64,000 bases of DNA from a bacterium (GTDB taxonomy: Bacteria; Patescibacteriota; Doudnabacteria; UBA920): the NCBI GenBank assembly GCA_016699995.1, contig CP064996.1, positions 626,963-690,962 of the forward strand, in the 5' to 3' direction. The translations under genes and the position numbers were made by a program. Shown in pieces: positions 5,504-61,116 of this stretch. Numbering within the stretch: position 1 is the first letter of the stretch; each line of letters begins with the position of its first letter. Below the pieces are notes generated by a model. It had not been told where the DNA came from. It worked only from the letters and a program-made list of their open reading frames with translations, and made no database searches.

Positions 5504-6994
5504 TTAAATTGCTTTCTTAGTGTGCCAATCGGTTGCATCCTGATAGGCAGCTCCGACGTTAAAGACTTTTTGCTCGCCCCATTGCGGGCCGATAATTTGC
5601 AATCCCACCGGCATCTCTTTTTCTCCCCCATCGCTCGGCTTTGCAAAACCGCAGGGAACAGATAGCCCAGGAGTCCCTGCTAAAGAACCAGGGATATTCA
5701 ACTGATCGGCAATATAACCAAACAAGGGGTCGTTAGCTGCTTTGCCTAAAGGCAACGCTACATTCGGAGAACTCGGCGCTACTAACACATCTACCTGCTT
5801 AAATATTTCCTCGAACTCTCTGAGAATCAATCGGCGCACGCGCTGAGCTTTTTTGTAATAAGCATCGTAATAACCAGCAGATAACACATAGGTGCCGATC
5901 ATAATTCGGCGCTTGGCTTCGTCGCCAAAGCCTTCGGCACGGCTCTTCATATACACGTCCAATAAACTGCCTTCTTCTGATGTTGAATGGCCGTAACGGA
6001 TGCCATCATAACGCGCTAAATTAGATGATACTTCACTGGGACAAACAATAGCATAAACCAAAGAACCATATTTCGTGTTCGGCAAGCTCACATCGACAAT
6101 TTCTGCGCCCAATCCGCGCAGAACCTCGATCGCCTCCATCACTCTAGAACGCACATCTTCTTGCATACCCTCTATAAAGTACTCTTTAGGGACGCCAATT
6201 TTCATGCCTTTAATATCGGCATTGAGAAGCTTCGAGTATTCTGGAACTTCCATAGGTCCTGTTGTAGAATCTTTTTCGTCCTGTCCGCTAATAACTTCGG
6301 CAATCATCGCCAAATCGCGTACGCTCTGTGCCATCGCACCCATACTGTCTAATGAACTTGCCATCGCTGCTACCCCATAACGAGACACGCGTCCGTAAGT
6401 CGGCTTCCATCCGCTCACGCCAGTTAAAGATGCTGGTTGGCGAATGCTGCCACCGGTTTCTGTTGCCAAGGCCCAAGGAGCGAGCCCTCCCGCAACTGCA
6501 GCAGCGCTACCGCTGCTAGAGCCGCCTGGCATGCGAGTGGTATCCCAGGGATTGCGAGTCGCTCCGTAGTAAGAAGTTTCACCGCTAGAGCCGTGCGCAA
6601 ACTGATCCATATTGGCTTTGCCGATCATCACAGCTTTCTGTTCTTTCAATTTAGCAATTACAGTGGAGTCATAAGGAGGAATATAGTTATCCAAAATTTT
6701 CGATGCAGCCGTGGTGCGAATGCCTTTGGTTAAAAACAAATCTTTTGCCGCAAACGGAATGCCGCACAAAGGAGGGTTGCCGCCTTCTGCAGCAATATAT
6801 TCATCGGCCTCTTGCGCCTGACGCAAAGCATCTTCTTCGTCTACGGTAATGAACGCATTCAATTTATCCTGATCGCCGACCGGAGACAATTCTTTAATGC
6901 GTGCCAAAAAATATTTCGTCAGTTCCACCGACGAAATCTCTTTGCTATCTAATTTTTGACGCAGCTCATGCAGCTGCAGCTTTTCCCATTCCAT
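5504..6994 (-). CDS. gatA: Glu-tRNA(Gln) amidotransferase subunit A (amidase signature family)
   Basis: Amidase signature GGSSGGSAAAVA. Conserved Ser-cisSer-Lys region. 496 aa. Confidence 0.9.
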   Translation of the reverse strand: MEWEKLQLHELRQKLDSKEISSVELTKYFLARIKELSPVGDQDKLNAFITVDEEDALRQAQEADEYIAAEGGNPPLCGIPFAAKDLFLTKGIRTTAASKILDNYIPPYDSTVIAKLKEQKAVMIGKANMDQFAHGSSGETSYYGATRNPWDTTRMPGGSSSGSAAAVAGGLAPWALATETGGSIRQPASLTGVSGWKPTYGRVSRYGVAAMASSLDSMGAMAQSVRDLAMIAEVISGQDEKDSTTGPMEVPEYSKLLNADIKGMKIGVPKEYFIEGMQEDVRSRVMEAIEVLRGLGAEIVDVSLPNTKYGSLVYAIVCPSEVSSNLARYDGIRYGHSTSEEGSLLDVYMKSRAEGFGDEAKRRIMIGTYVLSAGYYDAYYKKAQRVRRLILREFEEIFKQVDVLVAPSSPNVALPLGKAANDPLFGYIADQLNIPGSLAGTPGLSVPCGFAKPSDGGEKEMPVGLQIIGPQWGEQKVFNVGAAYQDATDWHTKKAI

Positions 6995-14320: not shown

Positions 14321-14414
<94 letters not shown>

Positions 14415-14793: not shown

Positions 14794-14845
14794 AATCTTT
14801 CCTCCTGAAAAATCAATTACTAACTAAAGAGTTTACCGCTCTTTA

Positions 14846-14876
14846 ATGGTATCGTCAAGAATGGTATCGTCAAGCC
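14846..14876. repeat. perfect tandem direct repeat AATGGTATCGTCAAG x2 in divergent intergenic region
   Basis: 14846-14860 and 14861-14875 are identical 15-mers, located between the 14476(-) gene and the E2-like gene. Candidate operator. Confidence 0.6.
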
Positions 14877-14964: not shown

Positions 14965-16641
14965 ATGGATCTTAACGTTGTAATGACTTCGGCAAGAATA
15001 CCAGCCGTAGTGAGCCAAGCTACTGAAGAAGTAGCCAAAAGGGTTCTATCGAGAGCTATGAAAGCTTCTAATGTTCATACGGTAAATATCATAGACCGGG
15101 ATACACAGCCACTTAAGCCACGCTATCCCGATGGCGGCTTCAACATTTTTCTAGACAGTTACATACTGACGCCTTACTCAATGTCCGGCAAAGTATTGGC
15201 CCCGGATCAGATCTGGAAAACCACCTCCAATATGTATGACAATCATCTCATGTACACCCCTTCGGGTGAAGGCATGCTGATAATTGATTCTACCAGCGAC
15301 ACGGTCGTAGCTGAGTATACGGACTACAACCTATATATCTTACTTGATCCGTATGCCCTATGCTGCATTGCAAACAGAGGATGGTTGTATATCTTTGAGC
15401 AAATTCTCAAGGAAACTCTGCTATATCTTCCAGCCGGACCTCCGCAAATTTGCGAGATCTACGATGGCCGGTTCAGGATCCCTAAGATTGCCGACATTAA
15501 GGATATGGTCGGCGACCTCAGATACCTACGCGATCAGTTAGCCAAACATGTAGGAACAGGGACAGAATTGTACGATCAACTGGCAAAAATTTCCGATACG
15601 GACCCAAGCGAACGGGTACTAAAACAGCTCGCCAGGATCCCGGAAATTAAAACCATGTCCATAAAAAAGCAAAGCATTACAATCGTCACCTATACCATGT
15701 ACGCTGAAGATCGTAGCCGGCATAAAATTCATGAACTTGGCCCTTTCCGGATAACTTTGAACTTCGGCGAAAATGCCAGTGCGGAATTCAGAAATCAAGG
15801 GCACAGATATGGCGGTTACGGACACCCTCACGTTGATAGGGACCGGGAAGGATACTGGTGCATGGGAGAAGGCTCAGCTATCCTTGACTTGCTAAAAACC
15901 TTTGAGTTCGAAGCAGCTATCTTGTTTGCCATCAAGGCAATTGAGTCAGTCAATCCTCGTCCTGACTATCTTAGCATCTTAAGACAGTTTCCCATTGTGG
16001 AAGAAAGGTTAAAATACCCCAAAGCAGAAGCAGAGTTGGACGAACACTCAAAAGAATCCTTTCTAAAAATGTACAGCGACGATAATGACGGCATTCACAA
16101 GCGGATTCTAGGTAAAATTCGTAATTTCCAAAACTCCGCGAAAGGTGCTCAAAGTGAATTATTTCTAAGCGTATTCGGTTCCACTCTCATAAAAGAGCTT
16201 GCCGACCCGAATGGTGCCAGGAACTTAACCGAGAAGCTACAAAGCCAGATTAAGGAGCTTAAAGACTTCCCATGGGTAGATAGAGTCACTATTCGAGACG
16301 ATCTTGTTGGCGTTCGAACTGTCTCGATGGTCATTACAGATACAGACACCCAGGAAAAATTCAGAGTCGGACCATTTGGTATTGCTTATAATTTCTCTGA
16401 TGGCACAGTGAAGGTGCAAAGCGAACGACCGTTCATGGTCAACGGGCAAATCTACCAGGCTCCCCAGATCCCCAATGAAGATGGCGACCTGATACTCAGC
16501 CAGCTCACGATGACTCTCCCAGAACTGATGGGAGAGCTAGAAGTAGCAACCTGTACAGAGCTGTTTGTAAATTACATCGCCACTTTCTCTAGCGTAACCC
16601 TCGGAGTCAAACCCCCGGAAACGCTAAGAGTGATTAAATAG
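14965..16641 (+). CDS. large multi-domain protein with central E2/UBC-like domain (HPH...C active-site loop)
   Basis: RBS AGGAGGAAGTATG. Residues about 240-330: beta-meander (SITIVTYTMY, HKIHELGPFRITLNF), then GHPHVDRDREGYWCMGEGSAILDLL, then helix ending ...AIKAIESVNP. This matches the UBC HPN-x(n)-G-x-I-C-L...PNP topology. The flanking N-terminal (~230 aa) and C-terminal (~220 aa) regions are unassigned. Confidence 0.6.
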   Translation: MDLNVVMTSARIPAVVSQATEEVAKRVLSRAMKASNVHTVNIIDRDTQPLKPRYPDGGFNIFLDSYILTPYSMSGKVLAPDQIWKTTSNMYDNHLMYTPSGEGMLIIDSTSDTVVAEYTDYNLYILLDPYALCCIANRGWLYIFEQILKETLLYLPAGPPQICEIYDGRFRIPKIADIKDMVGDLRYLRDQLAKHVGTGTELYDQLAKISDTDPSERVLKQLARIPEIKTMSIKKQSITIVTYTMYAEDRSRHKIHELGPFRITLNFGENASAEFRNQGHRYGGYGHPHVDRDREGYWCMGEGSAILDLLKTFEFEAAILFAIKAIESVNPRPDYLSILRQFPIVEERLKYPKAEAELDEHSKESFLKMYSDDNDGIHKRILGKIRNFQNSAKGAQSELFLSVFGSTLIKELADPNGARNLTEKLQSQIKELKDFPWVDRVTIRDDLVGVRTVSMVITDTDTQEKFRVGPFGIAYNFSDGTVKVQSERPFMVNGQIYQAPQIPNEDGDLILSQLTMTLPELMGELEVATCTELFVNYIATFSSVTLGVKPPETLRVIK

Positions 16642-16646
16642 AACAA

Positions 16647-16670
16647 CCCCTGTTATTTACAGGGGTTTTT
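16647..16670 (+). terminator. intra-operon rho-independent terminator/attenuator
   Basis: CCCCTG-ttattta-CAGGGG plus TTTTT directly after the E2-like stop. Followed by TTGACA(16673)-N17-TACTAT. Confidence 0.6.
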
Positions 16671-16672
16671 AC

Positions 16673-16701
16673 TTGACAAAAGGCTTCTCCCCCGCTACTA
16701 T
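16673..16701 (+). promoter_or_regulatory. sigma70-like promoter for JAB-E1-Ubl genes
   Basis: TTGACA at 16673-16678, a 17 nt spacer, then TACTAT at 16696-16701. RBS AAGGAGGA at 16713-16720. Confidence 0.45.
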
Positions 16702-16727: not shown

Positions 16728-17759
16728 ATGGGCAAAAAGAATAAGCCAGACAAGAAATCGGAAGATGGTCCTGAGATGGAAACTGCTAATAATGAATCGG
16801 CAAATAAAGCCAAAAACGCAGCCGAGGCGGAGCAAGCAGAGGAAGCGGTAAGCGAAGCTGTCGATGATGGGGAGGTTCTGGAATTACCGGAAGCACCACA
16901 AGCGGAAACCAAAACTGCAGGCCAGCAAAACGAAGAAACAATAATCGAAGTTCTGGAAGCCGAAGTTGTTGTGGAGACCAAGCCTGAACAAGCAGAACCA
17001 GATGAAGAGGAAGAGGAAGGAAAAGAGGAACCTCCTCAATATACCTATCACTGGGATCTTGCCAGGCGACCGGCTCAAGATTTTAAAAAACCTCGTTACT
17101 TTGCAACCAGCGCCGAATTGCTCAGAGTTCCTGCAACGATTCCCGTTATCCACGTCAGCTTATTCGCAGCTATGAAGATGTATCTCATGCTCAGTTATAT
17201 CGAGCAAGAGATTGGCTGGCTGGGAACGGCATACAGGCACAACGAGAAAGATTTTCGAATCGCCGATGTATTTATCTTTCATCAAGATATCAGTGCAGGG
17301 CACTCGGAGCTGTCAAAAACCAGCATGGCTGACTTCATCTGTGAAATGATGGGCACACCAGATGGTGAAGAGATCTTCAATAACACCAAATTTTGGGGAC
17401 ACTCTCATGGCTCCGGCGGCACATTCCCCTCCGGCCAAGACGACACGCAGGCTGAGTCCTTCGCTCAGGGCGGAGAAGATTTCTTTATTCGAGGAATTTT
17501 CAATCGACAAGGGGATATGAACTTCAGCGTCTACGACTGGGAAAAAGGGATAGCCTTTCACAGGATACCTTGGCTCATTCAAGCTGCGCCTGCGGATATG
17601 CCGGCTGATACCTATGACCGACTGAAAGAGTTTATTCTGCAGGAGATGAAAACCAAAGTCGTCCATCGCCGAAAGGTATACAAACACAAGCGCGGACGAA
17701 TATCTAAACGCGGTAAATCATGGATAGAACGGACGTTCGACACATGGCTTGGAGGATAA
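16728..17759 (+). CDS. JAB/MPN (JAMM) metalloprotease with acidic low-complexity N-terminal region
   Basis: Complete JAMM motif: E (IEQEIGW) ... HSHGSGGTFPSGQDD, which is HxH-x7-S-xx-D. The N-terminal ~100 aa is E/A/K-rich. Confidence 0.8.
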   Translation: MGKKNKPDKKSEDGPEMETANNESANKAKNAAEAEQAEEAVSEAVDDGEVLELPEAPQAETKTAGQQNEETIIEVLEAEVVVETKPEQAEPDEEEEEGKEEPPQYTYHWDLARRPAQDFKKPRYFATSAELLRVPATIPVIHVSLFAAMKMYLMLSYIEQEIGWLGTAYRHNEKDFRIADVFIFHQDISAGHSELSKTSMADFICEMMGTPDGEEIFNNTKFWGHSHGSGGTFPSGQDDTQAESFAQGGEDFFIRGIFNRQGDMNFSVYDWEKGIAFHRIPWLIQAAPADMPADTYDRLKEFILQEMKTKVVHRRKVYKHKRGRISKRGKSWIERTFDTWLGG

Positions 17760-17762
17760 AGG

Positions 17763-18461
17763 ATGCTGGATACAATAAGGCACATTGATGTTTTTTCTGC
17801 GGCTCAGTTTGGAGACCTTCGCGTTGACATTATCGGCGCTGGCGCTACCGGCTCCCGGATAGCGTTAGAGCTGGCAAAGCTAGGCCTCTCGAACATTCAC
17901 GTTTGGGATTTTGACAAAATCGAATCCCATAATGTCCCCAACCAAGTCTACGGCAACAATCATATTGGCGAAGTCAAGGTGGAGGCATTAAAGAGGATCA
18001 TCGAAGAGCAAACGGGCACCGTCATCACTTGCCACGAGGCAAGAGTCGACGGCACTCAGGAACTTGGAGATGTGGTATACTTGCTAACTGACACTATGGC
18101 CTCCAGGCAGGAAATCTGGAAGAATGGTCTGAGGTACAAGCCTCGGACTAAACTGATGATAGAAACTCGCATGGGTGCCAATAGCGGTCGAGTCTACTGT
18201 GTTAACCCTTCTTCTCCCAAGGACGTGAAGGGATGGGAAGCAACTTTATATTCTGATGATGTGGCAGTAGTTTCTGCCTGCGGAACTAGCATAACAGTTG
18301 GAGCAACCGCAGCTATGGTTACGGGCTATGCCGTTTGGCAGCTGATCCGTTGGCACAAAGCAGAAACAAGTTTAAAGGAAAACAAGGAACCTGATGACCG
18401 ACCCGAGAATGAATTAATTTTTTCGGTTCAGCCAGCAATGGTTAATACGTCTGACTTTTAG
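17763..18461 (+). CDS. E1-like ubiquitin-activating enzyme (ThiF/MoeB family, minimal)
   Basis: Rossmann IIGAGATGSRIALELAKLG. ThiF motif WDFDKIESHNVPNQ (D-x-D-x-hE-xSNLNRQ). Candidate catalytic Cys in SACGTSITVGATAAM. RBS GGAGGATAAAGGATG. Confidence 0.8.
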   Translation: MLDTIRHIDVFSAAQFGDLRVDIIGAGATGSRIALELAKLGLSNIHVWDFDKIESHNVPNQVYGNNHIGEVKVEALKRIIEEQTGTVITCHEARVDGTQELGDVVYLLTDTMASRQEIWKNGLRYKPRTKLMIETRMGANSGRVYCVNPSSPKDVKGWEATLYSDDVAVVSACGTSITVGATAAMVTGYAVWQLIRWHKAETSLKENKEPDDRPENELIFSVQPAMVNTSDF

Positions 18462-18471
18462 GAGGAAAGAA

Positions 18472-18738
18472 ATGATCGAAGAAAATGACAATGCTAATGG
18501 TCTCACTAAAACAATTACCGTCAAAATGGGATCCTACCCGGGGGGCAAGGTTAAACCCTACACCTTTCCCGAGGGCACCGATTATGGCGAAGCACTTCGT
18601 CAGGCCAACTTGACGCGAGGCAATAACGTTGAGGCTCTCGATATTCGAGTTAACGGCCAGAAGATCAGCAGCCCCGATGCTCTGATCGAAGAAGGAGATC
18701 AAATTCTCGTCTTCGAGAACATCCGAGGCAATAATTAA
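18472..18738 (+). CDS. ubiquitin-like beta-grasp protein (ThiS/MoaD-like), C-terminus ...ENIRGNN
   Basis: 88 aa. RBS AGGAGGAAAGAAATG. KTITVKMG...VNGQKISSPDALIEEGDQILVFENIRG resembles ThiS/MoaD/Ubl sequences ending at a Gly. Two residues (NN) follow the Gly. Confidence 0.55.
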   Translation: MIEENDNANGLTKTITVKMGSYPGGKVKPYTFPEGTDYGEALRQANLTRGNNVEALDIRVNGQKISSPDALIEEGDQILVFENIRGNN

Positions 18739-18765: not shown

Positions 18766-18794
18766 CAAAGCACGGTTTACTGTGCTTTTTTTAT
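18766..18794 (+). terminator. rho-independent terminator of Ubl operon
   Basis: AAAGCACGG-ttta-CTGTGCTTT followed by TTTTTTATTT. Confidence 0.7.
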
Positions 18795-20815: not shown

Positions 20816-20903
20816 GGAGAGGTCGCATAGTGGTTTAGTGCAACGGTCTTGAAAACCGTCAGGTCTCAAAGCCTCGAGGGTTCGAATCCCTCCCTCTCCG
20901 CCA
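20816..20903 (+). tRNA. tRNA-Ser (anticodon TGA), type II
   Basis: Acceptor GGAGAGG/CCTCTCC-G-CCA. Anticodon stem ACGGT/ACCGT with loop CTTGAAA. Long variable arm. T-arm GAGGG-TTCGAAT-CCCTC. The 5' 18 nt and 3' 28 nt are identical to tRNA-Ser(GCT) at 14321. Confidence 0.9.
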
Positions 20904-60728: not shown

Positions 60729-61116
60729 GGGGATGCCGGATTTCGACAGGACTTCGACATCGCTCTATATGCAAGACGAGCCAGCTTGCAAGCTCGTAAA
60801 TCTTACAAGCAACCATAAGTGTAAACTCATGGAACAAGGTCGTTACCGCATTTAAAAATGCGCAACTTGCACCTGCGTTCGCTTAACATTTAGGCAAACG
60901 CCTGGTCCTCTGCCCCGCTCTGGGCAGAGATCCGCCAGATTATTTTGAGCTATAGTGTTGTTGTCCGATATATGCAATAACACCGAAATTTTATATATCG
61001 ACCATTAGCTTAGTTGTTCGTTGTAAGGCTAGTGGTAACTTAAACGAACTAATCTTGTGAACAATGGAACGGTGAAAAAGACTTGGACGCGGGTTTAACT
61101 CCCGCCATCTCCACCA
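60729..61116 (+). ncRNA. ssrA: transfer-messenger RNA (tmRNA, ssrA)
   Basis: 5' GGGGATGCCGGATTTCGACAGG (E. coli has GGGGCUGAUUCUGGAUUCGACGGG). 3' GGACGCGGGTTTAACTCCCGCCATCTCCACCA (E. coli has GGACGCGGGUUCAACUCCCGCCAGCUCCACCA). Acceptor stem has the G3:U wobble. smpB lies 4 kb upstream. Candidate tag ORF GCA TTT AAA AAT GCG CAA CTT GCA CCT GCG TTC GCT TAA (AFKNAQLAPAFA*) at 60848-60896. Confidence 0.85.

Follow-up and report, generated by a model that had tools for sequence, protein, structure and literature searches.

A small open reading frame in a bacterium of the Patescibacteriota (GTDB lineage Doudnabacteria, UBA920; assembly GCA_016699995.1, contig CP064996.1, positions 626,963 to 690,962) predicts a ubiquitin-like protein (Ubl) that ends in Gly-Asn-Asn rather than Gly-Gly. 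An earlier note on this DNA proposed that the two asparagines are a pro-peptide removed by a JAB/JAMM protease to expose a reactive Gly, and gave a ThiS/MoaD-like sulphur carrier as the alternative. The locus thus raises the question of what kind of system the Ubl belongs to and at which residue the mature protein ends. The window analysed here is the whole stretch of 64,000 nucleotides, to which all coordinates refer.

A ubiquitin-like protein encoded in a four-gene operon

The reading frame at 18472-18738 starts with ATG and encodes 88 residues followed by TAA. Direct reading confirms the C-terminus that had been noted (LVFENIRGNN), so that the protein tail consists of I84, R85, G86, N87 and N88, with Gly86 encoded at 18727-18729 (GGC), Asn87 at 18730-18732 and Asn88 at 18733-18735. 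This is a genuine gene rather than a fortuitous reading frame; most loci that extend far enough have a small homologue within the same cassette or next to it. In the window the cassette comprises four genes, of which the Ubl gene is the last; the features, with the evidence for each, are as follows.

14965-16641, forward strand: 558-residue UBC/E2-like protein (motif in most loci, hhalign, PDB match, repeat comparison)
16728-17759, forward strand: JAB/JAMM metallopeptidase, 343 residues (weak Pfam Prok-JAB match, motif conservation, weak profile matches)
17763-18461, forward strand: E1-like adenylating enzyme, 232 residues, single ThiF/MoeB-type domain (Pfam ThiF, PDB relatives, conservation)
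18460-18465, forward strand: AGGAGG ribosome-binding site of the Ubl gene, overlapping the E1 stop codon (direct reading)
18472-18738, forward strand: Ubl gene (reading frame, AF2 model, Foldseek, family alignment)
18727-18735, forward strand: codons of Gly86-Asn87-Asn88 (family Gly-Asn motif, then the variable cap residue Asn88)
18767-18788, forward strand: intrinsic-terminator-like hairpin and T-run, closing the operon (terminator scan)

The peptidase had been described as adjacent to the Ubl. It does belong to the same operon, but the E1 gene sits between the two. The E1 gene itself is immediately upstream of the Ubl gene, a pairing kept in most related loci long enough for both.

In the AF2 model of the Ubl (pLDDT 76), about 13 disordered N-terminal residues precede a β-grasp domain (residues 14-81) of order β-β-α-β-β, with strands at 14-22, 28-33, 57-60 and 77-81 and a helix at 38-44. 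Residues 86-88 have pLDDT < 50, as for a flexible tail. Foldseek against the PDB with this model finds SUMO2/3, Mth1743, MoaD and Caldiarchaeum ubiquitin (TM 0.58-0.71, E about 1e-3). The predicted structure is thus a β-grasp closest to SUMO, MoaD and archaeal ubiquitin, and in both fold order and structural matches the model supports the earlier assignment to the Ubl fold. At the level of sequence the protein has no match in Pfam, NCBIfam, PHROGs or PADLOC, and a word-index search with the Ubl sequence alone returned only the query. Pfam ThiS (PF02597) does not match the window Ubl; it has a precomputed match on two di-Ubl homologues.

A single-domain E1 and an intact JAMM peptidase

The Pfam ThiF model covers residues 17-201 of the 232-residue E1 at 9e-19. 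The protein contains a GxGAxGS loop (residues 25-31), D49, D51, K72, D110 and R115, and the ATP-binding residues are conserved over 80 homologues. The candidate catalytic cysteine, Cys173 (codon 18279-18281), is kept in 97% of the same 80 homologues. ThiF, PaaA, MccB, MoeB and UBA5 are its sequence relatives in the PDB (E about 1e-7 to 1e-5). The match to MccB takes in only the Rossmann region, starting at about MccB residue 107; the Rossmann fold of the window E1 starts at about residue 17 with no domain before it, hence the enzyme has no RRE/peptide-clamp region as found in MccB. The best matches to named models are of ThiF/MoeB type, all far below the cut-offs. In PADLOC-DB v2.0.0 the E1 alone was matched, by Cap2-type E1-E2 models that cover just its Rossmann part (residues 13-110); the Ubl, the JAB protein and the 558-residue protein had no match there.

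The JAB peptidase has an acidic, low-complexity N-terminal extension. Its JAMM motif consists of Glu161 and H225-S-H227-x7-S235-x2-D238 (codons 17400-17441); the motif residues are invariant in the family alignment (A3) and 100% conserved in 76 homologues. The JAMM site is thus intact, and the operon of the Ubl contains both this peptidase and an E1. Profile matches to CSN5 and Rpn11 are weak, and searches of Pfam, NCBIfam, PHROGs and PADLOC gave nothing beyond one sub-threshold Pfam Prok-JAB match.

A candidate E2 in the 558-residue protein

The protein encoded by the first gene of the cassette begins with an N-terminal domain and a coiled coil; the UBC/E2-like core follows, and a long coiled coil then leads to a second repeat. 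The core contains H287-P-H289...C299 (codons 15823-15861), with HPN-type spacing to the Cys. The corresponding motif, [HA]PH[VI]xxxGx[AP]C[LMF]GN, is found in most loci that hold the gene, and its P, H, C and G are invariant in the family alignment (A7). Predicted secondary structure around the core consists of a helix, strands, a loop and helices. Compared with canonical E2s by hhalign, the core scores Prob 71.8% and P 3.5e-5 over 106 columns, against ≤ 1.3% for controls. In an hmmsearch against the PDB the top meaningful match is UBE2L3 (E 0.34), aligned through the HPN...C region. The second repeat (about residues 438-544) is homologous to the first (hhalign Prob 99.5%) and has no Cys, as in a UEV.

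Other searches gave no E2 relationship. Pfam scans of 32 excised UBC-like domains returned scattered chance matches only; the 558-residue protein has nothing in Pfam, NCBIfam, PHROGs or PADLOC; and Foldseek with the AF2 model of the whole protein, which is poor (pLDDT 64), found no significant match and no E2 in PDB and BFVD. The E2 assignment is accordingly put forward on sequence-profile evidence of moderate strength.

Distribution of the cassette and the sulphur-carrier alternative

Homologues were reached through the 558-residue neighbour and then through the E1 alignment. The cassette, whole or in part, occurs at about 140 loci from CPR bacteria, Melainabacteria and phages; it is kept, although its genes change order, in about 80 genome or viral loci and in 65 metagenome loci. 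A profile search of 1.84 billion representative proteins gave 1115 relatives of the Ubl at E ≤ 0.001, and the Ubl family comprises > 1000 clusters at 50% identity. No description of the family was found in the literature searched, and it is apparently undescribed. The presence of the family in CPR bacteria with minimal genomes, in Melainabacteria and in jumbo phages suggests that it has a part in conflicts between phage and host.

In the window the cassette has ClpC, ComF, tRNA-Ser, an ECF sigma/anti-sigma pair and RecG as neighbours. An integrated island between two tRNA-Ser genes was considered and dropped, since both tRNA genes are intact isoacceptors and the base composition is uniform.

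These data bear on the proposal that the Ubl is a ThiS/MoaD-type carrier, a small protein adenylated and thiocarboxylated by the E1 for a cofactor or thio-metabolite, with the JAB protein acting as QbsD or Mec+ do. JAB-assisted carriers of this kind exist (QbsE/QbsD, CysO/Mec+), MoaD is among the structural neighbours of the Ubl model, and the ThiF/MoeB-type matches of the E1 and the ThiS matches of the two homologues point the same way. Against it, neither the window cassette nor its immediate surroundings contain genes for ThiG, ThiH, MoaE, a rhodanese, a cysteine desulphurase or a siderophore, and no sulphur-transfer partners are among the Pfam families recorded around the cassette in three related loci. 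Most loci of sufficient length have a large UBC-like Cys protein alongside the cassette. The Ubl family lacks a GG terminus, having Gly-Asn as its motif, and it includes poly-Ubls of two to four copies as well as phage-borne members, which would make no sense for a stoichiometric carrier. A sulphur-carrier role is therefore very unlikely, because a sulphur partner is absent from the window region, a UBC-like Cys protein and a JAB peptidase are present, and poly-Ubl and phage versions exist; the alternative raised earlier is disfavoured on the same grounds. A conjugation-type Ubl system with JAB processing is, by contrast, strongly favoured.

The conserved C-terminus is Gly-Asn

Across 39 aligned Ubls (28% mean identity) Gly86 is the only invariant column and Asn87 is conserved in ≥ 90%; Gly-Asn occupies the position of Gly75-Gly76 of ubiquitin. 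Had the homologues lacked a conserved Gly, the Ubl interpretation of the earlier note would have fallen; the invariance of Gly86 leaves it standing. Among 199 unique relatives the dipeptide at the conserved end is Gly-Asn in 182, Gly-Ala in 9, Gly-Gly in 6 and Gly-Gln in 1, that is, Asn follows the Gly in about 91% and Ala or Gly in about 8%. The single Gln variant (locus L057) retains a side-chain amide.

What follows the dipeptide is variable. Eighty-four of the 199 relatives have nothing further and stop right after the Asn, Ala or Gly, 53 have one more residue, 15 have two, 11 have three and the rest have longer tails, whereas just one relative stops at the Gly itself. The first residue of the tail is diverse. 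Rare variants ending in SAG and KNG terminate at the last column of the dipeptide and hold their Gly there, not at the penultimate position. Many of the relatives are head-to-tail poly-Ubls (two to four copies) or fusions of Ubl domains; at the internal junctions of the poly-Ubls the dipeptide is GN in 151 cases, GA in 11 and GG in 7. The poly-Ubls, fusions and variable tails imply that cleavage at the C-terminal motif must happen, and to this extent the idea of a processed pro-peptide is upheld.

The nature of the residue after the dipeptide indicates where the cut falls. Pro is found at this +1 position in 0 of 356 contexts (P 3e-6), or in 0 of 139 by a conservative count (P 0.007), yet at +2 it makes up 7-10%. 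The exclusion at +1 with common occurrence at +2 points to a cut after the Asn.

Differences between GN-type and GG-type members were examined in the partner proteins. The GN-type E1 has Gly at alignment columns 142 and 174, the latter adjoining the catalytic Cys, where the GG type has Ala or Thr, and the surroundings of the JAB active site differ between the two as well. As the GG type forms a single clade, representing one evolutionary event, these differences are not independent covariation, and the test of whether the E1 changes when Asn is replaced by Gly was not counted as proof. A search of viral contigs with one GG variant gave nothing and with a GA variant led only to a GN relative.

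Which residue is the mature end

Two readings place the reactive end differently. In the first, Gly86 is reactive as in Bil, Asn87-Asn88 (in most relatives the Asn alone) is an obligatory pro-peptide, and the JAB peptidase cuts between Gly and Asn; the Asn would be kept as the preferred P1' residue of the peptidase or as a block on premature activation. The invariant Gly is what this reading predicts, and Gly is the reactive residue of every characterized Ubl known to us. The residues seen after it (N, A and G) share a small size, which a narrow S1' pocket might require, and the differences in the JAB active site between the GN and GG clades fit S1' as well as S1. Cleavage directly after a conserved Gly has been shown experimentally for the two bacterial systems concerned, BilC cutting between Gly and Ala in BilA and the Bub peptidase after Gly229 of BubAB (PMC10557695, PMC11601596), which counts against an Asn end, and E. 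aridi BilA has exactly one residue as a cap after the conserved Gly (PMC10557695). In Bil, however, whatever follows the Gly is not conserved and in most cases is missing (PMC10557695, bioRxiv 10.1101/2023.09.04.556158), whereas in the present family the protein ends at the Gly in 1 of 199. A deubiquitinase that also accepts a Lys isopeptide at P1' has no obvious need for 91% Asn, the exclusion of Pro concerns the residue after the Asn and no other, and the SAG and KNG variants keep their Gly in the last column. We consider this reading doubtful, though it is far from negligible.

In the second reading, the mature Ubl ends at Asn87. Asn87 and Asn88 are not equivalent, as only the former shows the conservation of about 91%, and the tail-less relatives end mostly at Asn and essentially never at Gly; the view of Asn-Asn as a disposable tail is not borne out. 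The conservation of Asn87, the termini at Asn and the exclusion of Pro after it together speak for the loss of just Asn88, giving an ...Arg-Gly-Asn end. The likeliest arrangement is one in which the cap consists of Asn88 and nothing else and Gly86-Asn87 closes the mature protein; we regard Asn87, rather than Gly86, as the probable mature terminus.

An Asn end is not without difficulty. To our knowledge, every characterized Ubl of an E1 pathway, whether eukaryotic, archaeal or bacterial, has a C-terminal Gly as its reactive residue. A C-terminal Asn, once activated, would be prone to form a succinimide, as in the MccB mechanism, and this would compete with thioester transfer. Nevertheless, MccB, a ThiF-like enzyme that adenylates a C-terminal Asn, provides a chemical precedent (PMC12250964).

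The precedent also gives rise to a further explanation, in which, once the E1 has adenylated the C-terminal Asn, the side-chain amide attacks the activated carbonyl and a succinimide forms at the C-terminus. This ring would then be the electrophile for ligation, or would be opened by a second NTP to yield an N-P linked nucleotidylated protein. The mechanism on a C-terminal Asn is documented for MccB (PMC12250964), the E1 has MccB and PaaA among its closest sequence relatives in the PDB, on a par with ThiF, and both the C-terminal Asn of about 91% of members and the amide of the Gln variant would suit it. The Ala or Gly found in about 8% of members could not cyclize, the E1 resembles MccB in the Rossmann region only and is devoid of the N-terminal RRE/peptide-clamp domain, and the conserved Cys of the E1 and the Cys-bearing UBC-like partner point to a thioester relay instead. 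Such a mechanism is unlikely.

A proposed pathway

With Asn87 as the mature end, the four proteins could act in the following order. The JAB peptidase would trim the single cap residue Asn88 and, in relatives, cut poly-Ubls and fusions after the Asn, the residues beyond Gly-Asn being either a variable cap or, in a polyprotein, the following unit. The E1 would adenylate the α-carboxylate of Asn87 and probably form a thioester at Cys173, from which the Ubl would be handed to Cys299 of the E2-like protein, in which the N-terminal domain and the second repeat, devoid of Cys, may serve to place the donor or the substrate. The Ubl would finally be ligated to a target, from which the JAB peptidase could release it. 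By analogy with the E1-like MccB, the chemistry of the Asn could be exploited, for example through a succinimide intermediate. That the modifier matures to a C-terminal Asn and that the family activates and ligates its Ubl through this residue, which would make it the first E1-activated modifier with a reactive end other than Gly, is a proposal that we narrowly favour. The whole chain, a four-component conjugation system including the Asn87 terminus, we judge to be evenly balanced between right and wrong.

If the Asn is reactive, attachment would occur via asparagine, which is unprecedented for ubiquitin-type modifiers as far as we know. The assumed need of E1 enzymes for a terminal Gly would have to change, and a connection would emerge between the Asn chemistry of a RiPP-type enzyme, MccB, and the Ubl branch of the E1 superfamily. 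The proposed end also offers a proteomic handle: trypsin acting on Arg85-Gly-Asn would leave a Gly-Asn remnant of +171.06 Da on targets.

Comparison with known systems

Protein conjugation by the bacterial pathways type II CBASS, Bil and Bub is a recent finding. The present cassette would be a further family, set apart by its minimal E1, a very large UBC-like protein with two repeats, frequent poly-Ubl precursors and the Gly-Asn end. Like the anti-phage Bil operon (BilA Ubl, BilB E2, BilC JAB, BilD E1), it appears to combine four functional roles, the E2 role being assigned here from the motif and hhalign. BilD is a large E1 with IAD, AAD and CYS domains, in contrast to the single adenylation domain of 232 residues; the E2-like protein here is of 535-690 residues with coiled coils and a second, inactive repeat. 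In Bil the JAB protein pre-processes the Ubl, which has short overhangs after the conserved Gly and is conjugated to target lysines (PMC10557695, bioRxiv 10.1101/2023.09.04.556158). The Bil overhang consists of 0-9 non-conserved residues and is usually absent, whereas here Asn occupies that place and the variable tail begins one position later.

Bub (type I, BubAB/BubCD/BubE, and type II) is likewise a bacterial Ubl operon with a homodimer-type E1. Its JAB protein cleaves a Ubl-containing pre-protein after the conserved Gly, and its Ubls have 1-3 β-grasp domains (PMC11601596). Bub uses oxyester intermediates with a Cys-less E1 and a Ser E2, whereas the E1 and the E2-like protein here each have a conserved Cys, and Bub encodes the DUF6527 serine protease BubE, a family with no Pfam match in our cassette. 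Type II CBASS is built on a CD-NTase substrate, a Cap2 E1-E2 fusion and the Cap3 JAB protein; the present cassette instead has a separate β-grasp Ubl and lacks the CD-NTase substrate and the E1-E2 fusion. Acceptance of a C-terminal Ala by Cap2 was looked for in one paper, which did not mention it.

The sulphur carriers (ThiS/ThiF, MoaD/MoeB, QbsE/QbsD, CysO/Mec+) share with the cassette a β-grasp protein and a minimal homodimer-type E1, and QbsD takes two residues off after the GG of QbsE. They differ from it in the sulphur-transfer and cofactor genes, the GG end, and the UBC-like protein and poly-Ubls that are found here. In the microcin C system, MccB (E1 superfamily) strictly requires a C-terminal Asn on its substrate MccA (PMC12250964). 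That substrate is a peptide of 7 residues or longer held by the RRE clamp that our E1 lacks, and MccB works without a Cys relay, E2 or JAB protein, whereas about 8% of the present family dispense with the Asn.

Eukaryotic polyubiquitin and capped precursors (UBI4, UBB, UBC, SUMO, NEDD8, UFM1 and ATG8) also have head-to-tail repeats or a short cap and need a protease before the E1. A single Gly followed by a pro-peptide of 1-2 residues is normal for UFM1 and ATG8. In all of these precursors the last conserved residue is the reactive Gly and the cap is variable, whereas in the family described here the last conserved residue is Asn.

The cassette and its neighbourhood

The ubiquitin-like protein (Ubl) is encoded by the fourth and last of four same-strand genes.

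14965-16641, + strand: 558-aa protein (exact-sequence match, NCBI locus tag IPM19_03445)
16728-17759, + strand: JAB/JAMM peptidase, 343 aa, with E161, H225-S-H227, S235 and D238 invariant
17763-18461, + strand: E1, 232 aa, single ThiF domain (Pfam, 9e-19)
6 nt 5' of the Ubl ATG, + strand: AGGAGG site overlapping the stop codon of the upstream gene
18472 to 18738, + strand: Ubl, ATG start, 88 codons and TAA, C-terminal end ...QILVFENIRGNN (exact-sequence match, NCBI locus tag IPM19_03460)
18767-18788, downstream of the Ubl gene: hairpin with a T-run

The Ubl reading frame lies on the + strand exactly where the earlier note placed it. The AF2 model (12 homologues as input; pLDDT 76) has the β-grasp order [strands 14-22 and 28-33, helix 38-44, strands 57-60 and 77-81], with residues 86-88 as a disordered tail. 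Foldseek comparison with the PDB returns SUMO2/3, Mth1743 (ThiS/MoaD-like), mycobacterial MoaD and Caldiarchaeum ubiquitin (TM 0.58-0.71). Topology and matches bear out the assignment to the Ubl type rather than to another β-grasp family.

Housekeeping genes flank the cassette (ClpC, ComF, tRNA-Ser, an ECF sigma/anti-sigma pair, a second tRNA-Ser, RecG, RadA). The intact tRNA-Ser genes (14321-14414 and 20816-20903; anticodons GCT and TGA) have identical 30-nt 3' ends, and the 6.4-kb segment between them contains the cassette and the sigma/anti-sigma pair; base composition in this segment is uniform, and nothing else found there suggests an integrated island. A perfect 15-nt tandem duplication (AATGGTATCGTCAAG x2; 14845-14874), about 90 nt 5' of the first cassette gene, might serve as an operator or have another regulatory function. 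Directly 3' of the 558-aa gene stop is a strong hairpin with a T-run (16645-16667), followed by a promoter-like site, TTGACA-17-TACTAT (10/12; 16673-16701); transcription or attenuation may be separate for the E2-like gene and for the JAB-E1-Ubl genes. Within its first 100 residues (16728-17030) the JAB is extended N-terminally by about 85 aa of acidic low-complexity sequence (EAEQAEE...EEEEEGKE), not shared by its three closest homologues. The window also holds a tmRNA gene at 60729-61116 (Rfam RF00023, 124 bits).

Distribution of the family and poly-Ubls

A word-index search with the Ubl alone finds no homologues. With the 558-aa protein it finds three, every one within the same four-gene cassette, in which the small proteins end in VRGN, VRGN and IRGN. 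The nearest cassette relatives are in MAGs of Saccharibacteria, Paceibacterota and other Patescibacteria. Searching with an E1 alignment yields 61 genome loci (CPR phyla and many Melainabacteria/Obscuribacterales) and 41 viral contigs, some of 180-217 kb; HMMs of the four proteins recognise the cassette in some 80 of them, with permuted gene order and the large protein often split into two separate genes. The remaining viral contigs (L082-L105, marine) have a distant E1 only, of a more divergent phage group (27-30% identity). The small proteins adjoining it end in NKSG, NKSGN or NKSGK, with Gly the last conserved residue, and the family HMM detects no JAB nearby.

An exhaustive profile search gives 1115 representative Ubl relatives (E <= 0.001), and the best 150 of these mostly consist of 2-4 Ubl copies head-to-tail. 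The dipeptide at internal junctions is GN in 151 cases, GA in 11 and GG in 7, and 2 to 5 variable residues separate it from the first strand of the copy that follows.

Phage triple Ubl, L065: ...TEPIKGN/QISVQVGK..., last copy ending IKGNK
Poly-Ubl P0006: ...VKGN/MPIVKVGK...VKGNR
Poly-Ubl P0109: ...KQVKGA/MKTIRVGK...KQVKGA
Poly-Ubl P0133: ...AIKGG/QHMVKV...AIKGG

In the phage and metagenome polyubiquitin-like proteins [L065, a 187-kb IMG/VR contig, at 5734-6402; P0021-P0165] the 2-4 copies are exact, the joints read ...GN/x... and a one-residue cap is often present on the last copy. In a rare variant, the four-copy metagenome representative P0113 (275 aa), Asn-Gly replaces Gly-Asn; its units all end ...LPKVGKNG and the protein stops there. 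Some Saccharibacteria have a Ubl joined via GN to a second β-grasp-like domain and a C-terminal domain.

Because poly-Ubls and fusions are joined through the C-terminal motif, the family must rely on endoproteolysis at that point. The JAB, which is always present and has 100% conserved catalytic residues, is the obvious enzyme. The poly-Ubls and phage copies also argue, with the UBC-like protein and the lack of partner genes, against the ThiS/MoaD-type sulphur carrier that the earlier note offered as an alternative, which we consider very improbable.

The C-terminal dipeptide and the cut site

In a 39-sequence alignment (28% mean identity) G86 is the sole invariant column, so the Gly that the earlier note took to be reactive is indeed conserved; N87 is conserved at >= 90%. 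Among 199 unique relatives whose last domain is complete, the end dipeptide is G-N in 182, G-A in 9, G-G in 6 and G-Q in 1; a single relative ends at Gly, possibly a truncated record. The dipeptide is followed by no residue in 84 relatives, by 1 in 53, 2 in 15, 3 in 11, 4 in 4, 5 in 4 and 6-15 in 2, and by a larger fused domain in 25. Counted from Asn, tail length falls monotonically from zero; counted from Gly, a cap is obligatory in >99% of members, with Asn always first. Conservation covers the two residues N-terminal to the proposed cut, and the one on its C-terminal side varies (K, R, S, N, A, E, L, V, Q and others). Ubl-processing proteases normally owe their specificity to the non-prime side. 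Pro is absent directly after the dipeptide in all 356 unique contexts (P 3e-6; background 3.5%) and at all 139 sites when one is taken per 50%-identity representative (P 0.007), and occupies 7-10% of second positions; its exclusion from P1' is a common peptidase restriction, ubiquitin-processing enzymes included. The Asn column aligns with the second Gly of GG-type relatives, and the rare variants ending ...SAG and ...KNG have Gly at that same final column.

Tail lengths, conservation pattern, Pro exclusion and alignment column thus point to a cut after Asn, not Gly. Asn88 is then likely a one-residue cap, and the mature Ubl would end ...Arg85-Gly86-Asn87. The proposal that the JAB trims this tail therefore stands in part: processing of the Ubl by the JAB is very likely, but the conserved unit is Gly-Asn and the last Asn alone looks like a cap.

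To our knowledge, all characterised Ubls of E1-dependent pathways react via Gly. BilC cleaves BilA at Gly97/Ala98 and BubCD cleaves after Gly229 (PMC10557695, PMC11601596). These precedents set a strong prior against an Asn87 terminus, and a Bil-like cut in which the JAB exposes Gly86 is the less likely alternative. On balance we lean towards Asn87 as the mature terminus.

GG-type loci offer a comparison. Retrieved from metagenomes, they have the same cassette, complete on longer contigs, and Ubls ending in KGG, KGGK, KGGN or KGGR. Between GN and GG types the E1 differs at profile column 142 (Gly versus Ala) and at column 174 (Gly versus Thr), which adjoins the candidate catalytic Cys173. Around the JAB zinc site the GN type has GW following the catalytic Glu (SG in the GG type), WGHSH (WWHSH in the GG type), PS preceding the catalytic Ser (WS) and Arg at column 186 (Ser). 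Pairing smaller residues in the E1 with a larger one at the end of the Ubl is as predicted if the E1 site accommodates Asn; the comparison is only suggestive because in the E1 tree the GG type forms just one clade and counts as one event. Several GG-type loci (L114, L125, L127, L128, L132, L134, L135, L139, L142) have an extra gene 5' of the E1, encoding a 115-129-aa protein that matches the Ubl profile and ends ...AKEA, ...AVRV or similar. Without the C-terminal G-x motif, this protein resembles a β-grasp partner that cannot be conjugated.

The E1 and the E2-like protein

The E1 is a minimal ThiF/MoeB-type domain in which the nucleotide loop, D49, D51, K72, D110, R115, R136 and Cys173 are conserved (80 homologues). 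Among solved structures, the closest to it in sequence are ThiF, PaaA, MccB, MoeB, UBA5, TcdA, Cap2 and BubCD (E 1e-7 to 1e-4, matches confined to the Rossmann half). In the segment HNVPNQ (aa 56-61; 17928-17945), Asn60, 97% conserved in the family, aligns with the Arg of the ThiF/MoeB NLQRQ motif, so the Arg that usually contacts ATP is apparently absent or contributed by another part of the structure. Succinimide or nucleotidylation chemistry at the C-terminal Asn, as in MccB, has a precedent in the E1 superfamily (PMC12250964), but it is made improbable here by Ala or Gly in 8% of members, by the lack of an RRE domain and by the conserved Cys relay.

The 558-aa protein has no match in any family library searched. 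Most loci holding such a gene have one protein with the motif [HA]PH[VI]xxxGx[AP]C[LMF]GN (H287-P-H289 and C299 in the window), similar to the UBC signature HPN[IV]xxxGx[IV]CL; its P, H, C and G are shared by all members of a set of 32 diverse sequences. The best meaningful match of the domain profile in the PDB is UBE2L3, with a weak E-value of 0.34, over 85 columns from helix 1 via ...GAFRIEINF... to HPNIDEKGQVCL. Alignment by hhalign with four canonical E2s gives Prob 71.8% (P 3.5e-5; 106 columns), and controls with reversed sequence or unrelated profiles give <= 1.3%. Confidence in the AF2 model is low (pLDDT 64, <50 around the motif), and a Foldseek search with it against the PDB and BFVD finds no E2. 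Taken together, the protein is probably an E2. Its C-terminal repeat is homologous to the first (Prob 99.5%) and, lacking the Cys, resembles a UEV.

Proposed relay and comparison with known systems

A ubiquitination-like relay is the best-supported reading, its catalytic steps all drawn from family knowledge and its direct support consisting of the parts list and its conservation. The JAB would trim the cap or cleave the polyprotein; the E1 would adenylate the exposed carboxylate and then probably form a thioester at Cys173; Cys299 of the UBC-like protein would next receive the Ubl and hand it to a target, with the JAB able to reverse conjugation. Features of the cassette fit phage-host conflict, as in Bil, none proving it. 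Its genomic neighbourhood differs between loci, some Melainabacteria MAGs have two copies, and in phage genomes it sits among replication genes.

Full-text literature searches found no description of a Gly-Asn-terminated Ubl family or of this cassette. A 2006 survey of prokaryotic Ub-like systems lists further operons with poly-Ubls (type 6e), in which JAB and E1 are fused, an architecture that differs from the one here. The known system closest in working is Bil, but the cassette matches no known model, its E1 architecture is different, and the tail after the Gly, non-conserved in Bil, here begins with a conserved Asn. It also departs from the defining traits of Bub (oxyester chemistry, BubE), of type II CBASS (CD-NTase, E1-E2 fusion) and of microcin C (RRE clamp). 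A reactive Asn terminus, if true, would be unprecedented among E1-activated protein modifiers.
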